Shown here piece after piece: positions 2,740 through 15,147 of a stretch of DNA of 24,629 nucleotides. Within the stretch, counting starts at the first letter, position 1. Each line of letters opens with the position of its first letter. Below the pieces are notes generated by a model, which saw only the letters and a list, made by a program, of their open reading frames with translations, had not been told where the DNA came from and did no database searches. The DNA lies in the NCBI GenBank assembly GCA_964585625.1, contig CAZPET010000002.1, positions 1 to 24,629 on the forward strand, read 5' to 3'. This DNA comes from an uncultured Syntrophomonadaceae bacterium (GTDB lineage: Bacteria > Bacillota > Dethiobacteria > DTU022). The translations under genes and the position numbers were made by a program.

Positions 2740-3462
2740 TTAATTATAGAAGATCCGCTCTGCTTTTTCAATTATTTGTTGGCCCGGTCGCTTGATAAAT
2801 TCCCAAACCTTGCTCCGCCAGCGAACTGCATTCTGCGGCTGCCTGCCGGCGCCAGGATCCGGCGGCTCCTTCATGCCGGCGGTGAGAAGGCTCTCTTCTT
2901 CATCGCTTTCAAATCTCTGTTCTTCTTCCGCAGAGTGATTGTCAAATATTACCGGAGGGAGGCAAAGCGAAGGGAAAAGGAGACACCACCAGTTTTCGCC
3001 GGCACCCTCACCGATGGTGATCATCAAGGCAGTGTAATTTCCGGCCGGGTAGATCCGGCGTCCGTAGGTCCGCAAAGGGAATTTTTCTCGGGTAAGCCGT
3101 ACCCCGATTTGCGCCTCTTCCGCAGCAGCTGCGGCAAACTCCTGGAGGGATCTTTCAAGTTCGGGCAGATAACCCTGTAAAAACTCCAGGTAAATCTGAA
3201 TATTACCGGCTTCGGGCGGACTGTTTTCTGACAGCAGCTGACGCACCCGGGCGGCAAGAGCCATTTTGAAACGCTGCTCTGCCGGGCTGTCGCCTGCGGC
3301 CCGCACATGCAGCCGGACCACGGGTTCGCCGGCATGAATCTGCCAGCAGGCGGCCCCCGCCTGCCGGTGAACCGGGCGGAATGCCGGTCCCAGCAGGGCA
3401 ATGATCACAATTAAAACCATAAAGATAAACCAGTGATCTTTAAGGATTGTTCTTTTCTTCAT
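2740..3462 (-). CDS. spoIIR: Stage II sporulation protein R
   Basis: N-terminal hydrophobic signal; RLHV.A..DS..EQ..K; FP.RTYG..YPAG.Y.AL.I.IGEGAGENWWCLLFPSLC, the SpoIIR signature. SD GGAGG inside the upstream sigma gene. Downstream of prfA-prmC as in Bacillus. Confidence 0.9.
   Translation of the reverse strand: MKKRTILKDHWFIFMVLIVIIALLGPAFRPVHRQAGAACWQIHAGEPVVRLHVRAAGDSPAEQRFKMALAARVRQLLSENSPPEAGNIQIYLEFLQGYLPELERSLQEFAAAAAEEAQIGVRLTREKFPLRTYGRRIYPAGNYTALMITIGEGAGENWWCLLFPSLCLPPVIFDNHSAEEEQRFESDEEESLLTAGMKEPPDPGAGRQPQNAVRWRSKVWEFIKRPGQQIIEKAERIFYN
2743..2771 (-). promoter_or_regulatory. sigmaA-type promoter embedded in the last codons of spoIIR
   Basis: TTGAAA (2771-2766)-N17-TATAAT (2748-2743), about 55 nt upstream of the Na/Pi gene start. 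Confidence 0.7.
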
Positions 3463-4264
3463 CGCGGTTCTCCTCCGGGTTGGATTCCTGCTTGTAGTGG
3501 CGGCGGATCATCTCCAGGGCCGCTTTTTCAATCCTTGAAACCTGGGCCTGAGAAATACCCACCTGCCTGGCAATTTCAACCTGGGTTTTTCCTTCGAAGA
3601 AGCGCGCTTCGATGATCCGTTTTTCCCTGGGATCAAGCTTATCCAGGGCCTCCTGCAGGGCTATGTTTTCGAGCCACTTCTCGGTGCTGTCGGATTGGTC
3701 GCTGATCAGATCCATTACATAGACCGGATCGGTGCTGTCGCGGAAAACCGGATCGTAAAGCGATACCGGTTCCTGGGCGGCGTTAAAGGCAAACACCACC
3801 TCTTCGGTGGTCATCTCCATGGCCTCGGCAATTTCACTGAGGTTGGGTTCGCGGTGATTTTTTTTCAGCAGCTCTTCCCTGGTCTGGAGAACCCGGTGGG
3901 AGAGGCTCTTGATTGAACGGCTGATATGGATGCTGTTGTTGTCGCGCAGGTAACGCTTGATTTCACCAATCACCATCGGGACGGCGTAGGTTGAAAAGTT
4001 TACTTCATGCTCCAGCTCGAAGTTATCAATCGCCTTGAGCAAGCCGATACAGCCAACCTGGAAGAGATCGTCCAGTGATTCACCCCGGTTTTTGAAACGC
4101 TGCAGGATGCTTAAAACCAGGCGCAGGTTTCCCCTGACCAGGGTATCCCGGGCTTCAAGGTCTCCTTTTTTGACCCGGCAAAACAGCTCTTTCATCTCTT
4201 CTGTCGACAGGATCGCCAGTTTGAAGGTGTTTACCCCGCTGAGCTTAACTTTGTTCGGCAGCAC
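3440..4264 (-). CDS. sigG: Sporulation sigma factor, sigmaG-like (probable paralog or relocated sigG)
   Basis: SigG-type N-terminus (NKVKLSGVNTFKLAIL vs NKVEICGVDTSKLPVL), GNLRLVLS, DDLFQVGCIGL, FSTYAVPMVIGEIKRYLRDNN, GKTQVEIARQVGISQAQVSRIEKAA. GTG start with SD GAGGAGG. Confidence 0.85.
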   Translation of the reverse strand: MLPNKVKLSGVNTFKLAILSTEEMKELFCRVKKGDLEARDTLVRGNLRLVLSILQRFKNRGESLDDLFQVGCIGLLKAIDNFELEHEVNFSTYAVPMVIGEIKRYLRDNNSIHISRSIKSLSHRVLQTREELLKKNHREPNLSEIAEAMEMTTEEVVFAFNAAQEPVSLYDPVFRDSTDPVYVMDLISDQSDSTEKWLENIALQEALDKLDPREKRIIEARFFEGKTQVEIARQVGISQAQVSRIEKAALEMIRRHYKQESNPEENRDEEKNNP

Positions 4265-4284: not shown

Positions 4285-4314
4285 TATTATTGCCATTATC
4301 TGTCTCTCTTAGAC
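4285..4314 (-). promoter_or_regulatory. sigmaF-type promoter for the sigG-like/spoIIR unit
   Basis: GTCTA (4314-4310)-N15-GGCAATAATA (4294-4285) against the consensus GYWTA-N15-GGnrAnAnTw: the -10 matches fully, the -35 at 4/5. Confidence 0.65.
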
Positions 4315-6777: not shown

Positions 6778-7684
6778 TATTTATCACCCCGGGCTTGAGA
6801 TGGCCCCCGGATCCGCCTTCCACTGCATCCGGCTCCAGCACCGCTTTCAGAGCACAGAGAGCCACTTCAACCTGGCCGTTATCCGGCTCGTTGGTAGTCA
6901 GGTTCTGCAGCCATAAACCGGGCAGCGTAAGCAGCCGGAGCAGCGGCGAGCGGCTGCGCGCCGTAAGGCGGATCGCTTCATAAGAGATCCCGGCCACCAG
7001 CGGCAGCATGAGCAGGCGGATAGCGATGCGCTGCCATAAAGAGACCCACCCGAAAAGGGAAAAAAGCAGGATGCTCAGAACCATCACAATAAGGAGAAAA
7101 CTGGTCCCGCAGCGGGGATGGTGAGTGCTGTATTGCTGCGCTTTCTGTACCTCCAGAGGATCACCGGCCTCGTAGCAGAATATGGCCTTATGCTCCGCAC
7201 CGTGGTAAGCAAAGAAACGCTTCATTTCACCCCATCGGGTCACCAGAAAAAGGTAGGCCAGAAAAATGGCCAGCCGGATCAACCCTTCTACCAGGTTTAA
7301 GACCACCGGGTGCAGGCGCTGCGGTAAGAAGCCGGCCAGCCAGGTGGGTAGGATGAAAAAAAGCCCCACCCCCAACGCCAGGCCAAGCACGACCACCAGA
7401 ACCGTCTGCCAGCCCTGCATCTCCTCCCCCTCTTCCTGAAGAACCTCTGCCGCCGAGAGATTAAGAGCATGCACGCCGAGAATGAGCGATTCGAAAAAAG
7501 AGACCATGCCTCTCAGGATCGGCCAGCCCAGGGGAGAGTAGCGCACGGCCAGGGGTACTTTTTTTTCCGAAATAAGGTTGATGGTGTTATCACTGCGCCG
7601 GCAGGCAACCGCCAACCGGTCGTGATAGCGCATCATCACCCCTTCAAGCACCGCCTGCCCGCCAACCCATTGCGGCCTTGTCAT
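6770..7684 (-). CDS. DUF1385 (YqhQ-like) membrane protein, predicted metal-dependent
   Basis: [14 protein letters not shown]-terminus, [23 protein letters not shown] motifs; commonly found between rpmE and prfA/prmC in clostridia. Confidence 0.88.
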
Positions 7685-7726
7685 CGTTTCACCCCTCCTG
7701 CGTTCATGCGGACACCGGCTTCCTGT

Positions 7727-7927
7727 TTACTCCATGCCGTACTTCCGCTTGAAGCGCTCCACCCTGCCTCCGGTATCGACGAACTTCTGCTTGCCGGTAA
7801 AGAAAGGATGGCACTTGGAGCATATTTCCACCTTCAGGTTCTCCCTGGTGGAACCGGTTTCAAAAGTTTCCCCGCAGGCGCAGGTGACCACCGTGCGGAA
7901 ATAGCGGGGATGAATTTTCTCTTTCAT
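7727..7927 (-). CDS. rpmE: 50S ribosomal protein L31, Zn-binding (C+) type
   Basis: [12 protein letters not shown]...[24 protein letters not shown]. Confidence 0.97.
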
Positions 7928-7963
7928 TCCTGAACAACCTCCCTGGCTTCACTTTCAGGATAA

Positions 7964-7992
7964 ATTTTAGCACAACTGTATTCATTGCGCAA
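7964..7992 (-). promoter_or_regulatory. sigmaA promoter for rpmE-DUF1385-prfA-prmC
   Basis: TTGCGC (7992-7987)-N17-TAAAAT (7969-7964) with TGn extension. Confidence 0.65.
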
Positions 7993-8102
7993 CAGGCCGG
8001 CCTATGACCAGCCCCGCATCTATTCACACACCGTGAGCCCGGATGAGAACAAGGGGAGCCAAGAATTGCAGAGCCCCGGGAAGTTTCACGCAAATCGAAC
8101 CT

Positions 8103-9638
8103 CTAATTGCCGCCGATCTGCGTCTCCCTGATGTAATCTTCAACAGTATCGCGGTCACTGTAAGGGAGAGTCTGCTCCCCGATGATCTGGCACTCTTCGT
8201 CTCCTTTCCCGGCCAGCAGCACCATGTCCCCCGGCCGGGCCATGGCCAGAGCATGGAAGACCGCCTCCCGCCGGTCGGGAATAACGAGCGGCGGACAGCG
8301 CATCCCTTTCTTGATATCATCTATAATTGCCGACGCATCTTCTCCGGCGGGGTTGTCGGTAGTCAGGATCACCTCGTCGCTGTAGAGCTCGGCGATCCGG
8401 CCCATCAGCGGCCGTTTCCCCCGATCCCTTTCTCCGGGACAGCCAAAGAGGGTGATCCGCCGGCGGGCCGGCCGGGTGAAAAGCAGTTTCAAGACCTGCT
8501 CCAACCCGTCGGGGGTATGGGCAAAATCGATAATCACGGTAAAGCCGGCCCGGGTTTCGATTTCCTCAAAGCGTCCCGGCACCTGCCGGAGTCCATTCAA
8601 CCCTGCGGCAACAGCTTCCGGAGCCAAACCTTCTTTGCGAGCTACCGCCGCTGCCGCGAGGGCATTGTAGACATTGAACTTCCCCGGCAGCTTCAATATT
8701 ACCCGAAAAGTTGTGGGCCACCCGAGCAGGTCAAAGCTGTAGAGCCCTGTTTCTGTTCGTGCAACATTAACTGCCCGCACGCCGGCCGCTGCCGCCCGGA
8801 TCCCGTAGGCCAGCCGGGGCAGCTCCGCGGCCCGCGCCTCCAGCTCACTGTGGTAGCGGTCATCGGCGTTGAGTATTACCCCGCCGCTCGAATGTTCCTT
8901 CAACAGGTTCATCAGCATACTTTTAGCCGCCAGGTATTCCTGCATATTGTGGTGGTAATCGAGGTGTTCCCGGGTCAGGTTGGTATAGACCACACTGTCA
9001 AACAGACAGTGAGCTGCGCGGCGCTGCACCAGGGCATGGGATGAAACCTCCATGGCCACAACTTCCGCTCCCTGCTGCAGTGAAAAATGAAGGTGTTCCT
9101 GCAAATCCAGCGATTGGGGAGTGGTCAAATCAAACTTTCGCCTGATTCCGTTTACAATAAGGCCGTTGCTGCCCAAAATGGCAGTCCTGTGACCGGCAGC
9201 TTCAAAGATACTGTCAATAAAATAGGTGGTCGTGGTCTTTCCATTGGTGCCGGTTACACCGATCATTTTCATCTTGCGGCTTGGAAAACCGTAATAGCAT
9301 GCTGCCGCCGCAGAGAGGGCCAGGCCGGTATCGTCCACCGTAATGACGGGGATCCCGTTTTCCTCCAGGCCGACCGGGCGGGAAACAACCAGGGCCACAG
9401 CACCCCGGCGAACCGCCTCGGCCGCATAATCATGGCCGTCGGCTTTTCTCCCCGGCAGGCAAAAAAAAAGGGTGCCCGGTTTTACTTTCGCCGAATGATA
9501 GGCCAGCCGGGCGATAGGAATTGACTCCAGGCGCTTTTTTAGCTCCCGGCCGGCAAACGGCTCCAGCAATGTCCAGGCATTAAATCCTTCGCTGGAATAC
9601 CCGTCATTTTTTTCAGTGTAGAACTCACTTCGTTTCAA
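8103..9638 (-). CDS. murE: MurE-family UDP-MurNAc-dipeptide:diamino-acid ligase with L-Lys-type DNPA motif
   Basis: GVTGTNGKTT P-loop, MEVSSHAL, TNLTREHLDYH, FNVYNALAA, GRFE, DFAHTPDGL, FGCPGERDRGKRPLMG, DNPA, AGKGDE. TTG start position uncertain. Confidence 0.9.
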   Translation of the reverse strand: MKRSEFYTEKNDGYSSEGFNAWTLLEPFAGRELKKRLESIPIARLAYHSAKVKPGTLFFCLPGRKADGHDYAAEAVRRGAVALVVSRPVGLEENGIPVITVDDTGLALSAAAACYYGFPSRKMKMIGVTGTNGKTTTTYFIDSIFEAAGHRTAILGSNGLIVNGIRRKFDLTTPQSLDLQEHLHFSLQQGAEVVAMEVSSHALVQRRAAHCLFDSVVYTNLTREHLDYHHNMQEYLAAKSMLMNLLKEHSSGGVILNADDRYHSELEARAAELPRLAYGIRAAAAGVRAVNVARTETGLYSFDLLGWPTTFRVILKLPGKFNVYNALAAAAVARKEGLAPEAVAAGLNGLRQVPGRFEEIETRAGFTVIIDFAHTPDGLEQVLKLLFTRPARRRITLFGCPGERDRGKRPLMGRIAELYSDEVILTTDNPAGEDASAIIDDIKKGMRCPPLVIPDRREAVFHALAMARPGDMVLLAGKGDEECQIIGEQTLPYSDRDTVEDYIRETQIGGN

Positions 9639-9679
9639 CTTATTTTCAGCACCCCCTTTGCAAACCTTTATTTACAAGC

Positions 9680-10555
9680 CTATGGCAGGTATTTTAGCGG
9701 ATTCACATTTTCACCGGCGGCATGAATCTCAAAATGCAGGTGCGGTCCGGTGGTATTGCCGGTCAATCCGATATAACCCAGCGTTTGCCCCGGTGAAACC
9801 TGCTGGCCTGCCGACACGGCGGTCTTGCAGGCATGGCCATAGCGGGTCAGGTAACCACCGCCGTGGTTTACCTCAATCATGATCCCGTAGCTCCCCCGGT
9901 AGCCGGCATGGGTGACCCGGCCTCCGGCGGCGGCATGGAAAGCGGTGCCGTAAGCGACGGCAATGTCAATCCCGTAGTGAAACTTCCCGTTACGCCAACC
10001 GTAACCGGACGTCAGCCTTCCCTGCACCGGCCAGTGAAATGATACTCTCTGTGAGCCGCGGGAATCAACCCCGCCGGGGACAATAACTCGTTCTCCTCTG
10101 GGCAATGCCGCCGGGTCGCTGATCTCATTTGCCTGTAAAATGGTTGTTTCATCGACCCCGTAAGCGGCGGCAATGGCTTCCACCGTATCGCCTTCTTTAA
10201 CATCATGGATACAGCCAACCACGGTCAATATCTCCAGGCGATCCCCGGGGTGAATCAGGGCGGGGTTGACAATATCATTCAACCGGACCAGCGTATCAAC
10301 ATCGGTCCCGAAGCGTGCCGCGATCGTGTAAAGGCAATCCATCGGCTCAACAATATACTCCAGAATTTTCGGCTTGAGGGCCTCTTCTTCACAGCTTTTT
10401 GCAGCTGTGAAATCCTGCAACTGCAAATAATATAACGGCACCTCACCAGATTCGCCATCTTCTTCAAGTTCCGAAGCAGAAGCCTTTTCCACATGGCCGA
10501 GACAGGCCAGCCCTACGATCAACGCTACCGTTGCTGCTTTTAAAAGACCTGACAT
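9680..10555 (-). CDS. Exported peptidoglycan endopeptidase: signal peptide, 2x LysM, M23 domain
   Basis: Hydrophobic N-terminus with ASA cleavage-like site; two LysM repeats (GDT/DCL..IA..YG); M23 Zn motifs HYGID and HLHFE. SD AAGGAGG. Confidence 0.9.
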   Translation of the reverse strand: MSGLLKAATVALIVGLACLGHVEKASASELEEDGESGEVPLYYLQLQDFTAAKSCEEEALKPKILEYIVEPMDCLYTIAARFGTDVDTLVRLNDIVNPALIHPGDRLEILTVVGCIHDVKEGDTVEAIAAAYGVDETTILQANEISDPAALPRGERVIVPGGVDSRGSQRVSFHWPVQGRLTSGYGWRNGKFHYGIDIAVAYGTAFHAAAGGRVTHAGYRGSYGIMIEVNHGGGYLTRYGHACKTAVSAGQQVSPGQTLGYIGLTGNTTGPHLHFEIHAAGENVNPLKYLP

Positions 10556-10588
10556 GGTTGATCCTCCTTAACAGCAGGGTATAGAGCA

Positions 10589-10640
10589 TATTTTGCTGTG
10601 CAAGGAGTAAAATTATACATTTCATGCCATGAGAGGTAAA
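10589..10640 (-). promoter_or_regulatory. Overlapping sigmaA- and sigmaG-type promoter candidates for LysM-M23 (and possibly murE)
   Basis: TTTACC (10640-10635)-N17-TATAAT (10617-10612); GTATA (10618-10614)-N18-CAAAATA (10595-10589) against GHATR-N18-CATWHTA. Confidence 0.5.
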
Positions 10641-10683
10641 CGGATGGTGAGAGATTCACTTTATTCAAGTGATCGCAAACAGG

Positions 10684-11967
10684 CTAGAATGTATACATGT
10701 TGCTTAAGAAATCCTCGTTGTTCTTGGTCTGTTTCAGCTTGTCGAGCAGCATCTCGAGGAATTCAACGTTTTGAGTATTCCCCATTGCCCGCCGCAATGC
10801 CCACATCAGCTCGATCTTGCGCTCGTCGAGGAGCAGCTCTTCGCGGCGCGTTCCGGAACGCGAAATATCAATGGCCGGGAAAATTCGCCTCTCGGAGATC
10901 TTGCGGTCCAGGTGCAGCTCCATGTTGCCGGTTCCCTTAAATTCTTCGTAAATTACATCGTCCATTCTGCTGCCGGTGTCAATTAAAGCAGTGGCTATGA
11001 TGGTCAGGCTGCCTCCGCCGTCAATGTTCCGCGCCGCCCCAAAAAAGCGCTTCGGTTTATAAAACGCAGCCGGGTCAATCCCCCCCGAAAGTGTCCGGCC
11101 GCTGGGAGGGATCACCAGGTTGTAGGCGCGGGCGAGGCGGGTAATGCTGTCCAGCAGAATGGCCACATCGCGGCCCTGCTCTACAAGGCGCTGGGCCCGT
11201 TCCAGGACCAGTTCGGAAATGCGGATATGGTTTTCCGGTTTCTGGTCGAAGGTGGAGCTGGCCACATCAGCTTTTACGCTGCGCTCCATATCGGTGACCT
11301 CTTCAGGACGTTCATCAACCAGCAAGATGATCAGGGTAACCTCGGGATGATTGGTAGAGATGCTGTTGGCAATCTGCTTGAGCAGGATTGTCTTTCCCGC
11401 TTTCGGCGGAGAGACGATCAGGCCCCGCTGCCCTTTGCCGATGGGGATAAGAAGATCGATAATCCTGGTGGAAAGAATGTGGGGTTCTGTCTCCATCCGC
11501 AGCGCTTCACGCGGATGCACCGGAACCAGCGAGGTAAAGTTGGGCCGGCGCGAAAACGACTCGGGATCTTCATCGTTGATCGACTCGACCAGCAACAAAG
11601 CATTGTATCTTTCATTATCTTTTGGAGGCCTGATCTTTCCAGCCACCATATCGCCGGTTCGCAGGTTGAAACGGCGAATCTGTGACGCAGAAATATAGAT
11701 GTCATCATCAGAATAACAGTATTTGTAGCGGCGCAGAAATCCGAACCCGTCGTTCATAATTTCAAGGAGACCGGCCGCGGAGTCATGTTCTCTTTCTGTT
11801 TCGATTTTCCCTCCGTCCTCAGAAGTATAATCATCTGAGGTGAGGACACCGGTTAGCGCCTCAACCAGTTCCTGTTTGCGCATTGTTGAGTGACCCCTGA
11901 TGGCCTTTTCCCTGGCCAAACGGCGCAGTTCACTTAGTGTTGAATTTTTTAATTGGCTTGGCTCCAA
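10684..11967 (-). CDS. rho: Transcription termination factor Rho
   Basis: Rho N-terminal helical domain, GFGFLR RNA-binding motif, [42 protein letters not shown]. Confidence 0.98.
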
Positions 11968-11982
11968 TTTGAAACACCACCC

Positions 11983-12039
11983 TTACTCTTGGATTGGTAT
12001 CAAAATATGAAAATCAAGTAGAACAGTCACTCCACGCAT
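11983..12039 (-). CDS. Candidate 18-aa leader peptide upstream of rho (MRGVTVLLDFHILIPIQE)
   Basis: GGAG-6nt-ATG; the TAA stop lies 15 nt before, and in frame with, the rho TTG. Too short for the ORF track; unverified. Confidence 0.3.
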   Translation of the reverse strand: MRGVTVLLDFHILIPIQE

Positions 12040-12329
12040 GATCATCTCCGTTTCGTTTCGGGGACGGCGTCACCGGATAACAGGAAGTCAGCAGGCAAAA
12101 GGGGTTTAAGCGTCGCCGCTTGGCCGGGTGCCGGCGGTAACTCCCCACACAATTCAGGTCAGGATCATCACCACAAGCGCACGGCTGCAGAGAAGATTCA
12201 ATCATCAGCACCGCAACCGGTCAGGGAATGTCCTGGCGGGGGAAGCTGTCACCAAGGGTATTATTCGCATTATCAGGATATACGTACACTTTGCATTAAC
12301 GGGGGTATATTCAAAACCTTTCTCATGAA

Positions 12330-12359
12330 AATTATGCTCTTTTTGAGGAAAACTTATTC
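12330..12359 (-). promoter_or_regulatory. Sporulation-type (sigmaG/sigmaE-like) promoter candidate facing rho
   Basis: GAATA (12359-12355)-N18-CATAATT (12336-12330), about 360 nt upstream of rho. Confidence 0.35.
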
Positions 12360-12473
12360 CAAGCGCAGCGCAGCATCGGAAGCCGGGCCGGCGGTTAAAA
12401 CGGCTTGCATTGTTATGATTCGCTACTGTATCATTATTTCCTGCTTATTGCAAAAAAATAAATGTGCGGTTAA

Positions 12474-12505
12474 TGTTATGATTTGTGCGGCTCTGTACCA
12501 TACTA
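12474..12505 (+). promoter_or_regulatory. Promoter candidates for the PBP gene: sigmaG-type plus extended -10 sigmaA-type
   Basis: TTATG (12476-12480)-N18-CATACTA (12499-12505); TGTTATGAT at 12474-12482 and also at 12411-12419. Confidence 0.45.
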
Positions 12506-12538
12506 TATTTCTAATATGGATTGGGGAGAGCGGTTAAC

Positions 12539-14539
12539 ATGAACTATTTTCGTGGTTTTTTAATTGTCTTTATTGTTTTGTTGCTGAGCATATCCGGAAG
12601 TTTTGGCTACCTGGTCTATACTATCGGGGAGATGGAGCAGCTTCCGGAGCCTTCACCTCCTTTGACCACGCGGATTTACGATTGCCGGGACGAACTCATG
12701 GCGGTCCGCTATGAAGAAAACCGCGTTGAGGTTCCCCTGGAGCGGGTTTCCGAATATTTGGTCAATGCCACGCTTGCCGTGGAAGACCGCCGGTTTTACC
12801 GGCATCACGGATTTGATCCGGCCGGCCTGGCCCGGGCGCTGCTAAGCAACCTTAAGGGAGGGCAGACCTCTCAGGGCGGCAGCACCATCACCCAGCAGCT
12901 GGCTAAAAATCTGTTCCTGTCGCATGATCGCACCTTGGAGCGAAAATTTAAAGAGGCTCTGTACACCATTCACCTGGAGAGCCGTTATCATAAAGATGAA
13001 ATCCTGGAAATGTATTTAAACACAATCTACTACGGTCACGCCGCTTACGGAGTCGAAGCCGCCGCTCAAACCTATTTCGGCAAATGCGCCGCCGATCTTA
13101 GCCTGGGTGAAGCGGCGCTCTTGGCCGGACTGCCTAAAGGCCCCTCTTATTACTCTCCCCACCTCAATCCGGAAGCGGCGGAGCAGCGCCAGAGAACAGT
13201 CTTGAGCCAGATGGTTTCCGCGGGCTTCATTGATGAGGATGAGAAAGAAACGGCCCTGCGGGAACAGCTGGGTTTCCGGGAGCTGTCAGATGAAGAAAGT
13301 CCGGCGTATTTTCTTGATTACGTGATCAACACCGAGCTCGCTGAATTATTTAACGGAGACTTGAATCCTGTTTACCGGGACGGCTTAAATATTTATACCA
13401 CCATTAACCCGGATATGCAGCAGCTGGCCCAGGAGACCATTGCCGGAATCCCCACGCTGCGCCTCGATGAAAATGGAAAGAGACAGCCCCAGGGGGCGCT
13501 GGTGGCCATTGAGCCGGATACCGGCTATGTCAGGGCGATGGTGGGGGGGCGCGACTTCAAAGAAACAAGTTTAAACCGTGCTTTGGCCCTCCGTTCGCCG
13601 GGTTCTACTTTTAAACCTTTTGTTTATGCAGCGGCGCTTGAAAACGGCTTTACCGCGGCGGACCTGGTCAGCTGCGAAGCTGTTACTTTTAACGAAGCCG
13701 GCCTGGAGGAGCCGTATACGCCGACAGATTTCGGAGGAGGCTTTCACAACCGGGAGCTGACCATCCGTGAAGCGCTGGCAAAATCGTGCAATATTGCCGC
13801 GATCAAGGTGCATGATCAAATCGGGAAAGATAAAGCGGTGGAGATGGCCCGTCGGCTGGGTATCTCCAGCCCTTTGGGAGCCTACTTCTCACTGCCCCTG
13901 GGGACCGGCGAGGTATCCCTGCTCGAATTGACCGCTGCTTTTGCCACGTTCGCCAACGGAGGCTTCCGCATCGACCCCCTGGTCATCCGTAAAGTTGTGG
14001 ATCCGCAGGGAAGGGTGCTGCTGGAGAACCGGCCGCAAAAAGAGCAGGTTCTGGACCCGGCCATCGCTTTTTTGATCACCGATATGCTCAAAGGTGTCCT
14101 CGGGGAAGGAGGCACCGCCAGTGCCGCCGGATCGATTCTAAACCGCCCCGCGGCAGGCAAATCGGGCACCTCTCAGGAGAGTAAAAATGCGCACATGATC
14201 GGTTATACGCCGCAGCTGGTAGCCGGTATATATGTCGGTGACGATTACGAGAAACCGATTGATTTTTCAGGAGGAGGCGCAGCCGCCCCCCTGTGGGCCT
14301 GGTTCATGAAGCTCGCCTTGCAAGATAGCGCTGTTCTCGATTTTGAAGTTCCCGGGGGAATCGTCAGCTGCTCCCTCTGCCCGGAATCGGGATTGCTGCG
14401 CAGCCCTTTCTGCCCGGAACCGCTCAAAGATGAATTTTTCATTAGCGGAACTGAACCGGCAGAAGAGTGCCGCCTCTGCCGTCCTGCTTTCTGGTGGCCC
14501 TGGCTCCCCTCGTTAAAACATTCACCCGCTCTTCCTTAA
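12539..14539 (+). CDS. Class A bifunctional penicillin-binding protein (PBP1A family, PbpG/YwhE-like)
   Basis: Single N-terminal TM; GT51 motifs EDRRF and GGSTITQQLAKNL; transpeptidase motifs STFK, SCN, KSG. ATG 12539 with SD GGGGAG. Confidence 0.93.
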   Translation: MNYFRGFLIVFIVLLLSISGSFGYLVYTIGEMEQLPEPSPPLTTRIYDCRDELMAVRYEENRVEVPLERVSEYLVNATLAVEDRRFYRHHGFDPAGLARALLSNLKGGQTSQGGSTITQQLAKNLFLSHDRTLERKFKEALYTIHLESRYHKDEILEMYLNTIYYGHAAYGVEAAAQTYFGKCAADLSLGEAALLAGLPKGPSYYSPHLNPEAAEQRQRTVLSQMVSAGFIDEDEKETALREQLGFRELSDEESPAYFLDYVINTELAELFNGDLNPVYRDGLNIYTTINPDMQQLAQETIAGIPTLRLDENGKRQPQGALVAIEPDTGYVRAMVGGRDFKETSLNRALALRSPGSTFKPFVYAAALENGFTAADLVSCEAVTFNEAGLEEPYTPTDFGGGFHNRELTIREALAKSCNIAAIKVHDQIGKDKAVEMARRLGISSPLGAYFSLPLGTGEVSLLELTAAFATFANGGFRIDPLVIRKVVDPQGRVLLENRPQKEQVLDPAIAFLITDMLKGVLGEGGTASAAGSILNRPAAGKSGTSQESKNAHMIGYTPQLVAGIYVGDDYEKPIDFSGGGAAAPLWAWFMKLALQDSAVLDFEVPGGIVSCSLCPESGLLRSPFCPEPLKDEFFISGTEPAEECRLCRPAFWWPWLPSLKHSPALP

Positions 14540-15147
14540 AGAAGAAACGGATTGCTGCGCGCTTCTGTTTCGATCGTGGTGGCCGGGCCGTGTCCTGGAT
14601 ATACCACGGTCTGCGGCGGCAATACCATCAACTTCTCTTTAATACTGCCGATCAAGAGCGTGTAGGAGCCGCCGGCAAGATCGGTCCGGCCGATGGAACC
14701 GGCAAAAAGAGTGTCGCCGGTAAAAACGACCCCGTCGCCATAAAGTGAAATGCCGCCCCCGGTATGGCCGGGGGTCTCAAGAACAGCAAGAACCTTCCGG
14801 CCAACAGGGATCTGCTCGCCTTCTTTGAGCAGACGGTCAGGCTGTACCGGTTTGCCGAAGAGAACTCCCAGCCCGAAGCCGGGGTTGCAGTATATTTCCA
14901 GATCCTTCTCAGGCAGCAAAAGCGGCGCCCGGAGGGCCTCTTTCAACCTCCCGTTGGCCCCGGTATGATCGATATGCCCGTGAGTGTTGACAATTCCGTT
15001 TATTTTTAGCCCGCTCTTCTCAATTTGATGCAAGATCCGCTTTCCTTCCGCACCTGGATCGATAACAATTCCCTCCCCTGTATCCGGACAGCTGACCAGG
15101 TAACAGTTTGTGGCAAACATGCTCACCACCAGTGCCTGTACATGCAT
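14536..15147 (-). CDS. MBL-fold metallo-hydrolase, glyoxalase II-like (YqgX/YcbL type)
   Basis: TNCYL, IDPG, THGHIDH, TPGHT, FTGDTLF, PGHG. SD AAGGAGG. Confidence 0.9.
   Translation of the reverse strand: MHVQALVVSMFATNCYLVSCPDTGEGIVIDPGAEGKRILHQIEKSGLKINGIVNTHGHIDHTGANGRLKEALRAPLLLPEKDLEIYCNPGFGLGVLFGKPVQPDRLLKEGEQIPVGRKVLAVLETPGHTGGGISLYGDGVVFTGDTLFAGSIGRTDLAGGSYTLLIGSIKEKLMVLPPQTVVYPGHGPATTIETEARSNPFLL

Follow-up and report, generated by a model that had tools for sequence, protein, structure and literature searches.

In a 24,629-nt stretch of DNA (contig CAZPET010000002.1, positions 1 to 24,629; here called the window) from an uncultured, Dethiobacteria-like Bacillota spore-former seen in metagenomes from anaerobic digesters and bioreactors, the neighbourhood of rho, the gene for the transcription termination factor, appears to carry several clustered promoters of the forespore class (σF and/or σG). 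We hold this explanation of the whole with fair confidence. Two of the sites precede a class A penicillin-binding protein (PBP) gene and a LysM-M23 metallopeptidase gene followed by murE; a forespore-class promoter for each is the best reading of the sequences and moderately probable. A third site of the same class appears to serve rho, and related bacteria keep all three, so the sites are probably real. As such, they are a new member or variant of the known forespore regulons.

Conserved boxes around rho

The candidate promoter of LysM-M23(-murE) lies at 10589..10618 on the minus strand and reads GTATA-N18-CAAAATA (GTATA at 10618-10614, CAAAATA at 10595-10589). It ends 33 nt before the ATG of the M23 gene (10555), with a good ribosome-binding site between the two. 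On the plus strand, the PBP gene is preceded by TTATG-N18-CATACTA at 12476..12505 (TTATG at 12476-12480, CATACTA at 12499-12505), which ends 33 nt before an ATG (12539), again with a good ribosome-binding site in between. This ATG, and not the listed TTG at 12521, is probably the start of the gene. An earlier note on this DNA had proposed both motifs as σG-type promoters and had seen no terminator in the 41 nt between the M23 gene and murE. Both motifs are present at these coordinates, and the gap (9639-9679) contains no terminator-like site. The third candidate, GAATA-N18-CATAATT at 12330..12359 on the minus strand, is directed towards rho and lies ~365 nt upstream of its start.

Unbiased alignment with MAFFT of two spacers, that between rho and M23 and that of 500-640 nt between PBP and rho, showed little conservation outside a few blocks, and these blocks are the boxes. 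At M23, PBP and rho alike, two conserved boxes surround a diverged 18-nt spacer; before the PBP gene they appear as GT[T/A]ATG and CATACTAT. The M23 site is kept as AAATG[T/A/C]ATA-N18-[C/G]A[A/G]AATA in 9 lineages, the PBP site as T[T/A]AT[G/T]-N18-[C/T]ATA[C/A]TA in 8 and the rho site as G[A/C]ATA-N18-CATAATT in 7. Hence the possibility, raised by the earlier note against its own proposal, that relatives do not conserve the motifs did not materialize: the boxes are kept in 7-9 lineages, always at exactly 18 nt from each other, and the sequences between them are unrelated. Two relatives, L113 and L114, keep all three sites and a third, L099, keeps the M23 site, with entirely different spacers. 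Across lineages, the M23 site stands 32-36 nt before its start codon, the PBP site 33-55 nt and the rho site 260-548 nt.

The σG consensus of Helmann and Moran in 2002 and Wang et al. in 2006 reportedly reads GHATR, 17-18 nt, CATXHTA. The -35 boxes at M23 (GTATA, GAATA or GCATA) and rho (GAATA or GCATA) have no mismatches to the forespore consensus, and their -10 boxes (CAAAATA or CAGAATA at M23, CATAATT at rho) have one mismatch each to CATXHTA. At the PBP site the reverse holds: the -10 box (CATACTA or CATAATA) is a perfect CATXHTA and the -35 box (TTATG or TAATG) has one mismatch. Substitutions between lineages hit degenerate positions of the consensus, namely the H of GHATR (T, A or C) and the X and H of CATXHTA (CATACTA to CATAATA).

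Invariant motif columns were compared with invariant columns of spacer plus flank in five or six close lineages by Fisher's test. Motif columns were invariant in 10/12 cases at the M23 site (spacer plus flank, 12/84), in 11/12 at the PBP site (13/88) and in 12/12 at the rho site (23/88). The resulting p values of 3e-6 to 2e-7 come from anchored alignments that were extracted by the motif regular expression, and the invariance counts are therefore partly forced and inflated. Independent support comes from the MAFFT alignments and from the finding that, in each locus of 8-24 kb, every expression has exactly one match, which lies at the orthologous place.

By counts alone, forespore-type matches are marginally above chance. 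Allowing ≤1 mismatch, the pattern GHATR-N18-CATNHTA was found 7 times in the window and 2.9 ± 1.6 times in shuffled sequence (2/100 shuffles reach 7); the N17 variant gave 0 matches for 2.75 expected. Intergenic DNA (1.45 kb) holds 4 matches for 0.73 expected (14/2000 shuffles); among these four, one is the PBP site read in reverse and another is the rho-directed third site. The matches are thus credible because they are conserved in relatives, not because of the counts. That they reflect chance and have no function is extremely improbable: for each spacing, ~3 matches per window are expected when a loose consensus is searched with one mismatch, but orthologous conservation in 7-9 lineages, the fixed spacing and the diverged spacers contradict such an origin.

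Sigma factors that could read the sites

Scored against the σG consensus and against the σF consensus given in PMC11599450 (GYATA, 14-15 nt, GGNNANAHTR), the PBP site has 1 mismatch to σG and 4-5 to σF, the M23 site 1 and 1-3 (L092 being nearly perfect for σF), and the rho site 1 and 3. A fit to the σF -10 is limited to the M23 site of L092 (1 mismatch) and to the promoter of sigG itself (0). By consensus, we class the PBP site as σG-like and the M23 site as a σF/G hybrid.

Two further promoter sequences of the window served as controls. The σF-type promoter of sigG-spoIIR, GTCTA-N15-GGCAATAATA (4285..4314, minus strand), lies 6 kb from the cluster and is invariant in 4 lineages, and its -10 is a perfect GGNNANAHTR. 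As a negative control we used the canonical σA promoter of rpmE, TTGCGC-N17-TAAAAT (7964..7992, minus strand), which has TG one base upstream of its -10 (extended -10) and is conserved in 5 lineages as TTGCGC-N17-TGnTAAAAT. Comparison with these controls showed that the M23, PBP and rho sites form a putative promoter class distinct from the ordinary σA promoters of the clade.

The σG-like gene that the earlier note had seen nearby is indeed a gene of the SigF/G family, located at 3440-4264 (minus strand). The suggestion that this local paralog acts as a special regulator of the cluster did not hold up. Its product scores as SigG itself (NCBIfam NF006071, 399 bits versus a cutoff of 372; SigF/SigG subfamily NF004052, 312 versus 311), and the gene stands behind a σF-type promoter in a sigG-spoIIR unit. 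It is predicted to encode an ordinary forespore sigma factor and no special regulator.

The earlier note had also reported σA-type elements at both regions. Before the M23 gene such an element exists: TTTACC-N17-TATAAT (10640-10612) scores 10/12 and overlaps the candidate site. Before the PBP gene we found nothing reaching 9/12. The σA half of the proposed dual σA/σG control did not survive, as the M23 -35 is unconserved in relatives and no good σA promoter precedes the PBP gene.

An inverted repeat, ACAGC-N19-GCTGT (10571-10599, minus strand), spans the candidate -10 and stops immediately short of the ribosome-binding site of M23. Most close relatives have this repeat; L092, L099, L113 and L114 do not. 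It may be a lineage-specific operator or hairpin.

The boxes might instead be vegetative signals. The upstream box at M23 would then be a σA -10, CAAAATA and the ACAGC/GCTGT repeat would be an element of the 5' untranslated region or an operator, and the PBP boxes would be a weak σA promoter (ATGATT-N17-TACTAT) or repressor half-sites. The score of TTTACC-N17-TATAAT in the window, the exact TATAAT in four lineages, the recurrence of the repeat in most close relatives and the quasi-palindromic form of the PBP site speak for this view. We nevertheless consider it unlikely. The σA -35 at M23 drifts to CTTCCC, CCTGCC, CAACCC and others, and the would-be -10 decays to AATAAA or CATATT in some lineages, whereas CA.AATA stays 18 nt away in 9/9; the boxes also persist in the four relatives in which the repeat is missing. 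At the PBP site, a T/A change in the upstream box is uncompensated in the other arm, unlike in a symmetric operator, and the genuine σA promoter of the clade, that of rpmE, looks quite different.

The quasi-palindrome at the PBP site covers 12474-12505; its reverse strand, GTATG-N18-CATAACA, is also a one-mismatch match, which follows from the self-complementarity of the consensus (CATAC versus GTATG). We rejected a palindromic operator here owing to the uncompensated T/A change. A WalR half-site (TGTTAT or TGTAAT before the PBP gene) was rejected as well, because it has no second half-site and because two lineages carry A at T1.

A mother-cell promoter is another candidate for the PBP gene, which would then act in cortex synthesis: CATACTAT resembles the -10 of σE or σK (CATACA-T or CATA---TA, consensus sequences that reportedly go back to Helmann and Moran in 2002 and Eichenberger in 2003). 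The -10 of the window, CATACTATA, fits CATA-N3-TA, and the PBP homologue of Natranaerofaba comes after yunB, a sporulation gene. However, the final A of CATA---TA is unconserved (A, G, C or T), and the conserved upstream box T[T/A]ATG stands at 18 nt, which is σG geometry. Neither ATA (σE) nor AC (σK), the -35 elements of these factors (PMC3789822), is found at the required 14 or 16-17 nt, and we regard a mother-cell promoter as highly improbable.

Some other alternative sigma factor or an activator yet to be described could read the sites as part of a stress or stationary-phase regulon. Each site is off consensus at one position and the organism is uncultured, which leaves some room for such a regulator. 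Yet geometry and letters fit none of the other well-known Bacillota sigma factors (SigB, SigH, SigD, the extracytoplasmic function family and σ54, whose consensus sequences were compared); sigG and spoIIR are next door with a textbook σF promoter; and B. subtilis offers a forespore precedent for each of the three gene classes, in PbpF/G, in rho and in SpoIIQ with its LytM domain. We judge this explanation very unlikely.

Besides the partly forced column counts and the marginal motif counts, several points weigh against forespore-class promoters at these sites. Each site has one mismatch: a T replaces G in the PBP -35, an A replaces T in the M23 -10 and a T replaces A in the rho -10. In the four lineages in which the M23 -35 box overlaps a perfect TATAAT, reading that box as a σA -10 is possible. 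The PBP site of L099 is degenerate (TAATT..TATACTA), and its rho site lacks the spacing. Among PBP homologues of ~50% identity (Natranaerobius, Natranaerofaba and the loci L100 and L101 from metagenome-assembled genomes, MAGs), which are non-syntenic, no site at ≤1 mismatch was found; these are probably paralogues or too distant. In favour of such promoters, a PBP homologue of the Dethiobacteraceae, paired with the same metallo-β-lactamase (MBL) gene as in the window, has an exact GCATA-N17-CATCTTA 92 nt upstream. Runs X3 and X25 (labelled 'METAGENOMIC RNA-Seq') cover genes and intergenic DNA of the window (7600-14600) evenly, like DNA; they are unfit as expression evidence and should not be used. 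The metatranscriptome X30 gave rho fragments only, and X27 gave nothing specific to the locus. Finally, the sigma assignment, for which 'forespore class' is a safer label than 'σG' at all three sites, uses the consensus of Bacillus and Clostridioides. Applying it in a third class is reasonable: B. subtilis and C. difficile have similar consensus sequences for σF and for σG, and those of σF and σG also overlap (PMC3789822, PMC7438776).

Gene products and wall chemistry

The PBP gene (12539..14539, plus strand) encodes a bifunctional class A enzyme of 666 amino acids (Pfam Transgly and Transpeptidase; TIGR02074, 605 bits). Both the glycosyltransferase (GT51) and the transpeptidase domain carry their catalytic motifs (EDRRFYRHHG, GGSTITQQ, STFK, SCN, KSGT). 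In B. subtilis, the germ cell wall, which is chemically equivalent to vegetative peptidoglycan, is built with the help of PbpF and PbpG, two class A PBPs of the forespore (PMC9600426), and the earlier note's appeal to this precedent for a class A PBP behind a forespore-type promoter is apt. Like PbpF (PBP2c) and PbpG (ywhE, PBP2d), the window PBP is bifunctional, of similar size and encoded directly behind a candidate promoter of forespore consensus. It differs from them in the T for consensus G in its -35, in a gene that diverges from rho and converges with that of an MBL hydrolase, and in a Cys-rich tail. Some of its relatives at 62-65% identity are named 'penicillin-binding protein 2D' by JGI, a label only. 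The tail, at the C-terminus (14330-14539), consists of a Cys-rich segment (SCSLCPESGLLRSPFCPE...EECRLCRP) followed by WWPWLP; it lies outside the Pfam domains and looks like a small metal-binding or disulfide module. In L100 (4632-8019; PBP 55% identical) an M23 gene without LysM stands directly upstream of the PBP homologue, and in Natranaerofaba carboxydovora (L097, 3799-6989) the homologue follows yunB. Such recurring M23/PBP and sporulation neighbourhoods may be meaningful.

The LysM-LysM-M23 metallopeptidase (9680-10555, minus strand; Pfam LysM x2 and Peptidase_M23) has 291 amino acids, an N-terminal hydrophobic segment and an invariant VPLYYLQLQDFTA motif, and is predicted to be secreted or membrane-anchored. 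Its zinc site is intact (H193/D197 in HYGID at 193, H241, and H272/H274 in HLH at 272); clostridial SpoIIQ proteins also keep theirs. With SpoIIQ, a forespore membrane protein made under σF that carries a LytM/M23 domain, it shares the N-terminal hydrophobic anchor or signal, the M23 domain, a similar length and a forespore-type promoter. The window protein has two LysM domains, whereas SpoIIQ has none. It failed the SpoIIQ family model (NF053738, 53 bits versus a cutoff of 250), and among proteins of solved structure it is closest to generic M23 enzymes, SpoIIQ ranking far lower. Judged by sequence, the likeness to SpoIIQ is one of outline only, and we do not class the protein as SpoIIQ.

The MurE-type ligase gene (8103-9638, minus strand) follows 41 nt downstream of the M23 gene. 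Its product carries DNPA in place of DNPR, the motif that binds diaminopimelic acid (DAP), and so do the enzymes of all relatives. Homologues down to 44% identity all lack the Arg, and DNPR enzymes appear only below 44%. The best solved relative is the Lys ligase of T. maritima (4BUB). DNPA is the motif of the Lys-adding MurE of S. aureus, although specificity does not depend on this motif alone (PMC3829189); to this extent, the claim of a Lys-type precursor ligase in the earlier note is borne out at the level of sequence. The curated models point elsewhere: the window MurE is below the cutoff of the Lys-ligase model (NF010628, 319 bits versus 536) and above that of the DAP-ligase model (NF001126, 481 versus 373). 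Because DNPA is found in every relative, a non-DAP substrate is suggested for the window enzyme.

The M23 and murE genes are tightly spaced (1-41 nt) in 8/9 lineages. In L092 (6876-7117) a strong intrinsic terminator (GCGCCCGGC...GCCGGGCGC TTTTTT) and then rpmE come after the M23 gene; murE is absent from this locus and must therefore reside elsewhere in at least this lineage. The linkage of murE to M23 is thus not universal in the clade. As L092 has both the M23 promoter and the M23 gene without murE, the promoter would serve M23 first. Two genomes at greater distance likewise have a stand-alone DNPA murE, which adjoins the proline-synthesis genes proC and proB. One stand-alone case, L112 (2428-9491; a Dethiobacter sp. 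MAG), has proC-proB-proA and a homocitrate-synthase-like gene ahead of the DNPA murE, which converges with a gene of the FemAB family. This FemAB neighbour hints at Lys-type peptidoglycan with interpeptide bridges in Dethiobacteria.

Lysinibacillus (Bacillus) sphaericus, in the work of Tipper and Linnett in the 1970s, reportedly has a Lys-type vegetative and germ cell wall and a DAP-type cortex. To our knowledge, such a compartmentalised dual wall chemistry is known biochemically only from this species. The window organism resembles it as a spore-former with a MurE that, by its sequence, lacks the DAP-binding Arg and stands behind a forespore-type promoter candidate. In contrast to the two-ligase system of L. 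sphaericus, the window side is known from one MurE gene, and its specificity is inferred from one motif.

Rho (10684-11967, minus strand; Pfam Rho_N, Rho_RNA_bind and ATP-synt_ab) is 88-94% identical between the window and its relatives. In B. subtilis, rho has a σF promoter, GAATA-N14-GGTAAAAATA, located ~300 nt upstream within a chromosomal cluster of σF genes (Bidnenko et al. 2024, PMC11599450). The B. subtilis promoter and the window candidate share a GAATA -35 several hundred nucleotides upstream and a long leader. The window site has CATAATT at 18 nt, a σG-like geometry, whereas B. subtilis has GGTAAAAATA at 14 nt; in addition, no overlapping σA promoter is recognisable at the window rho site. 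A σA reading of the same block on the plus strand (TTCAAA-N17/18-TATGMT, towards the PBP gene) was rejected, since it is lost in L113 and L114, where the minus-strand boxes persist. Just after CATAATT, at 12290-12330 (minus strand), ~25 nt of the form TTT(T)CAT[G/A]AG[A/G]AAGGT[T/C]TTG are nearly as conserved as the boxes: the block is found, with a 1-nt indel, in 6/7 of the lineages that keep the site, and L113 departs from it. Within the 260-550-nt 5' region of rho, this block might be a leader element. A search of Rfam gave no match anywhere in the window, the long rho leader included.

If the sites act as proposed, forespore RNA polymerase would transcribe the PBP gene, M23(-murE) and rho after asymmetric division, with M23 co-transcribed with a non-DAP-type MurE in most lineages. 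The forespore would make its own peptidoglycan polymerase, as with PbpF/PbpG, and its own Rho. The M23 wall endopeptidase, if forespore-made, would be exported into the intermembrane space, and the extra forespore MurE would add to the precursor supply; the three wall proteins would serve germ-cell-wall or engulfment peptidoglycan synthesis. A bolder version, possible but doubtful, has the forespore run its own precursor line. A forespore promoter would drive LysM-M23 and a non-DAP (Lys- or Orn-type) MurE beside a forespore PBP, so that the germ cell wall is built from inside with vegetative-type chemistry and a mother-cell ligase supplies the cortex, all from one conserved promoter cluster that would also re-arm Rho. 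The Lys-type germ-cell-wall pathway is, at this stage, an attractive inference.

Forespore-class promoters at these sites would mean that Bacillus shares the forespore sigma consensus with an uncultured class of anaerobic spore-formers from which it is deeply separated, and that the distant forespore promoter of rho is likewise conserved across that separation. A LysM-M23 endopeptidase and a MurE would join the forespore wall toolkit, so far PbpF/PbpG, PbpI, DacF and the like. The cluster bears on where the precursors of germ-cell-wall and engulfment peptidoglycan are made and on how spore-formers with DAP-less walls handle two wall chemistries.

Gene order and relatives

In the window, walR-walK-yycH-yycI-murA and genes for a His-phosphatase, an HtrA-like protease, a metalloenzyme and the MBL hydrolase, all on the minus strand, come before the PBP gene. 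Beyond murE, rpmE (7727-7927) and DUF1385-prfA-prmC follow on the minus strand. nikR, on the plus strand, lies between prmC and sigG, which overlaps spoIIR (2740-3462) by 23 nt; a Na/Pi transporter gene and tsaC end the order beyond spoIIR. The series rho ... rpmE ... prfA-prmC ... spoIIR ... tsaC is the usual housekeeping neighbourhood of Bacillota, as on the B. subtilis map. The window departs from this usual order by an insertion of M23 and murE behind rho and by the position of sigG ahead of spoIIR.

Named homologues agree with a place for the window organism in the Dethiobacteria group. With the full M23 protein as query, reference genomes gave mostly cyanobacterial M23 proteins and a single true relative (L007). 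Scanning metagenomes with the N-terminal part of the protein yielded eight further loci, and L099, L102, L113 and L114 were obtained from look-ups of PBP and MurE homologues. Identity of the relatives to the window is 65-77% for M23 and 62-84% for PBP; the MurE proteins of L113 and L114 are 57% and 63% identical to that of the window, and the PBP of L099 is 62% identical. A divergent PBP gene, then rho, M23 and murE is the arrangement in all relatives but L092; in L113, dnaX follows murE. In L002 (same species, a 799-kb JGI contig; 10917-13553), an insertion of a DDE-transposase-associated gene and a DruA-family gene separates murE from rpmE, and the murE call is longer by 26 residues (537 amino acids), a strain-level variation beside the promoter cluster.

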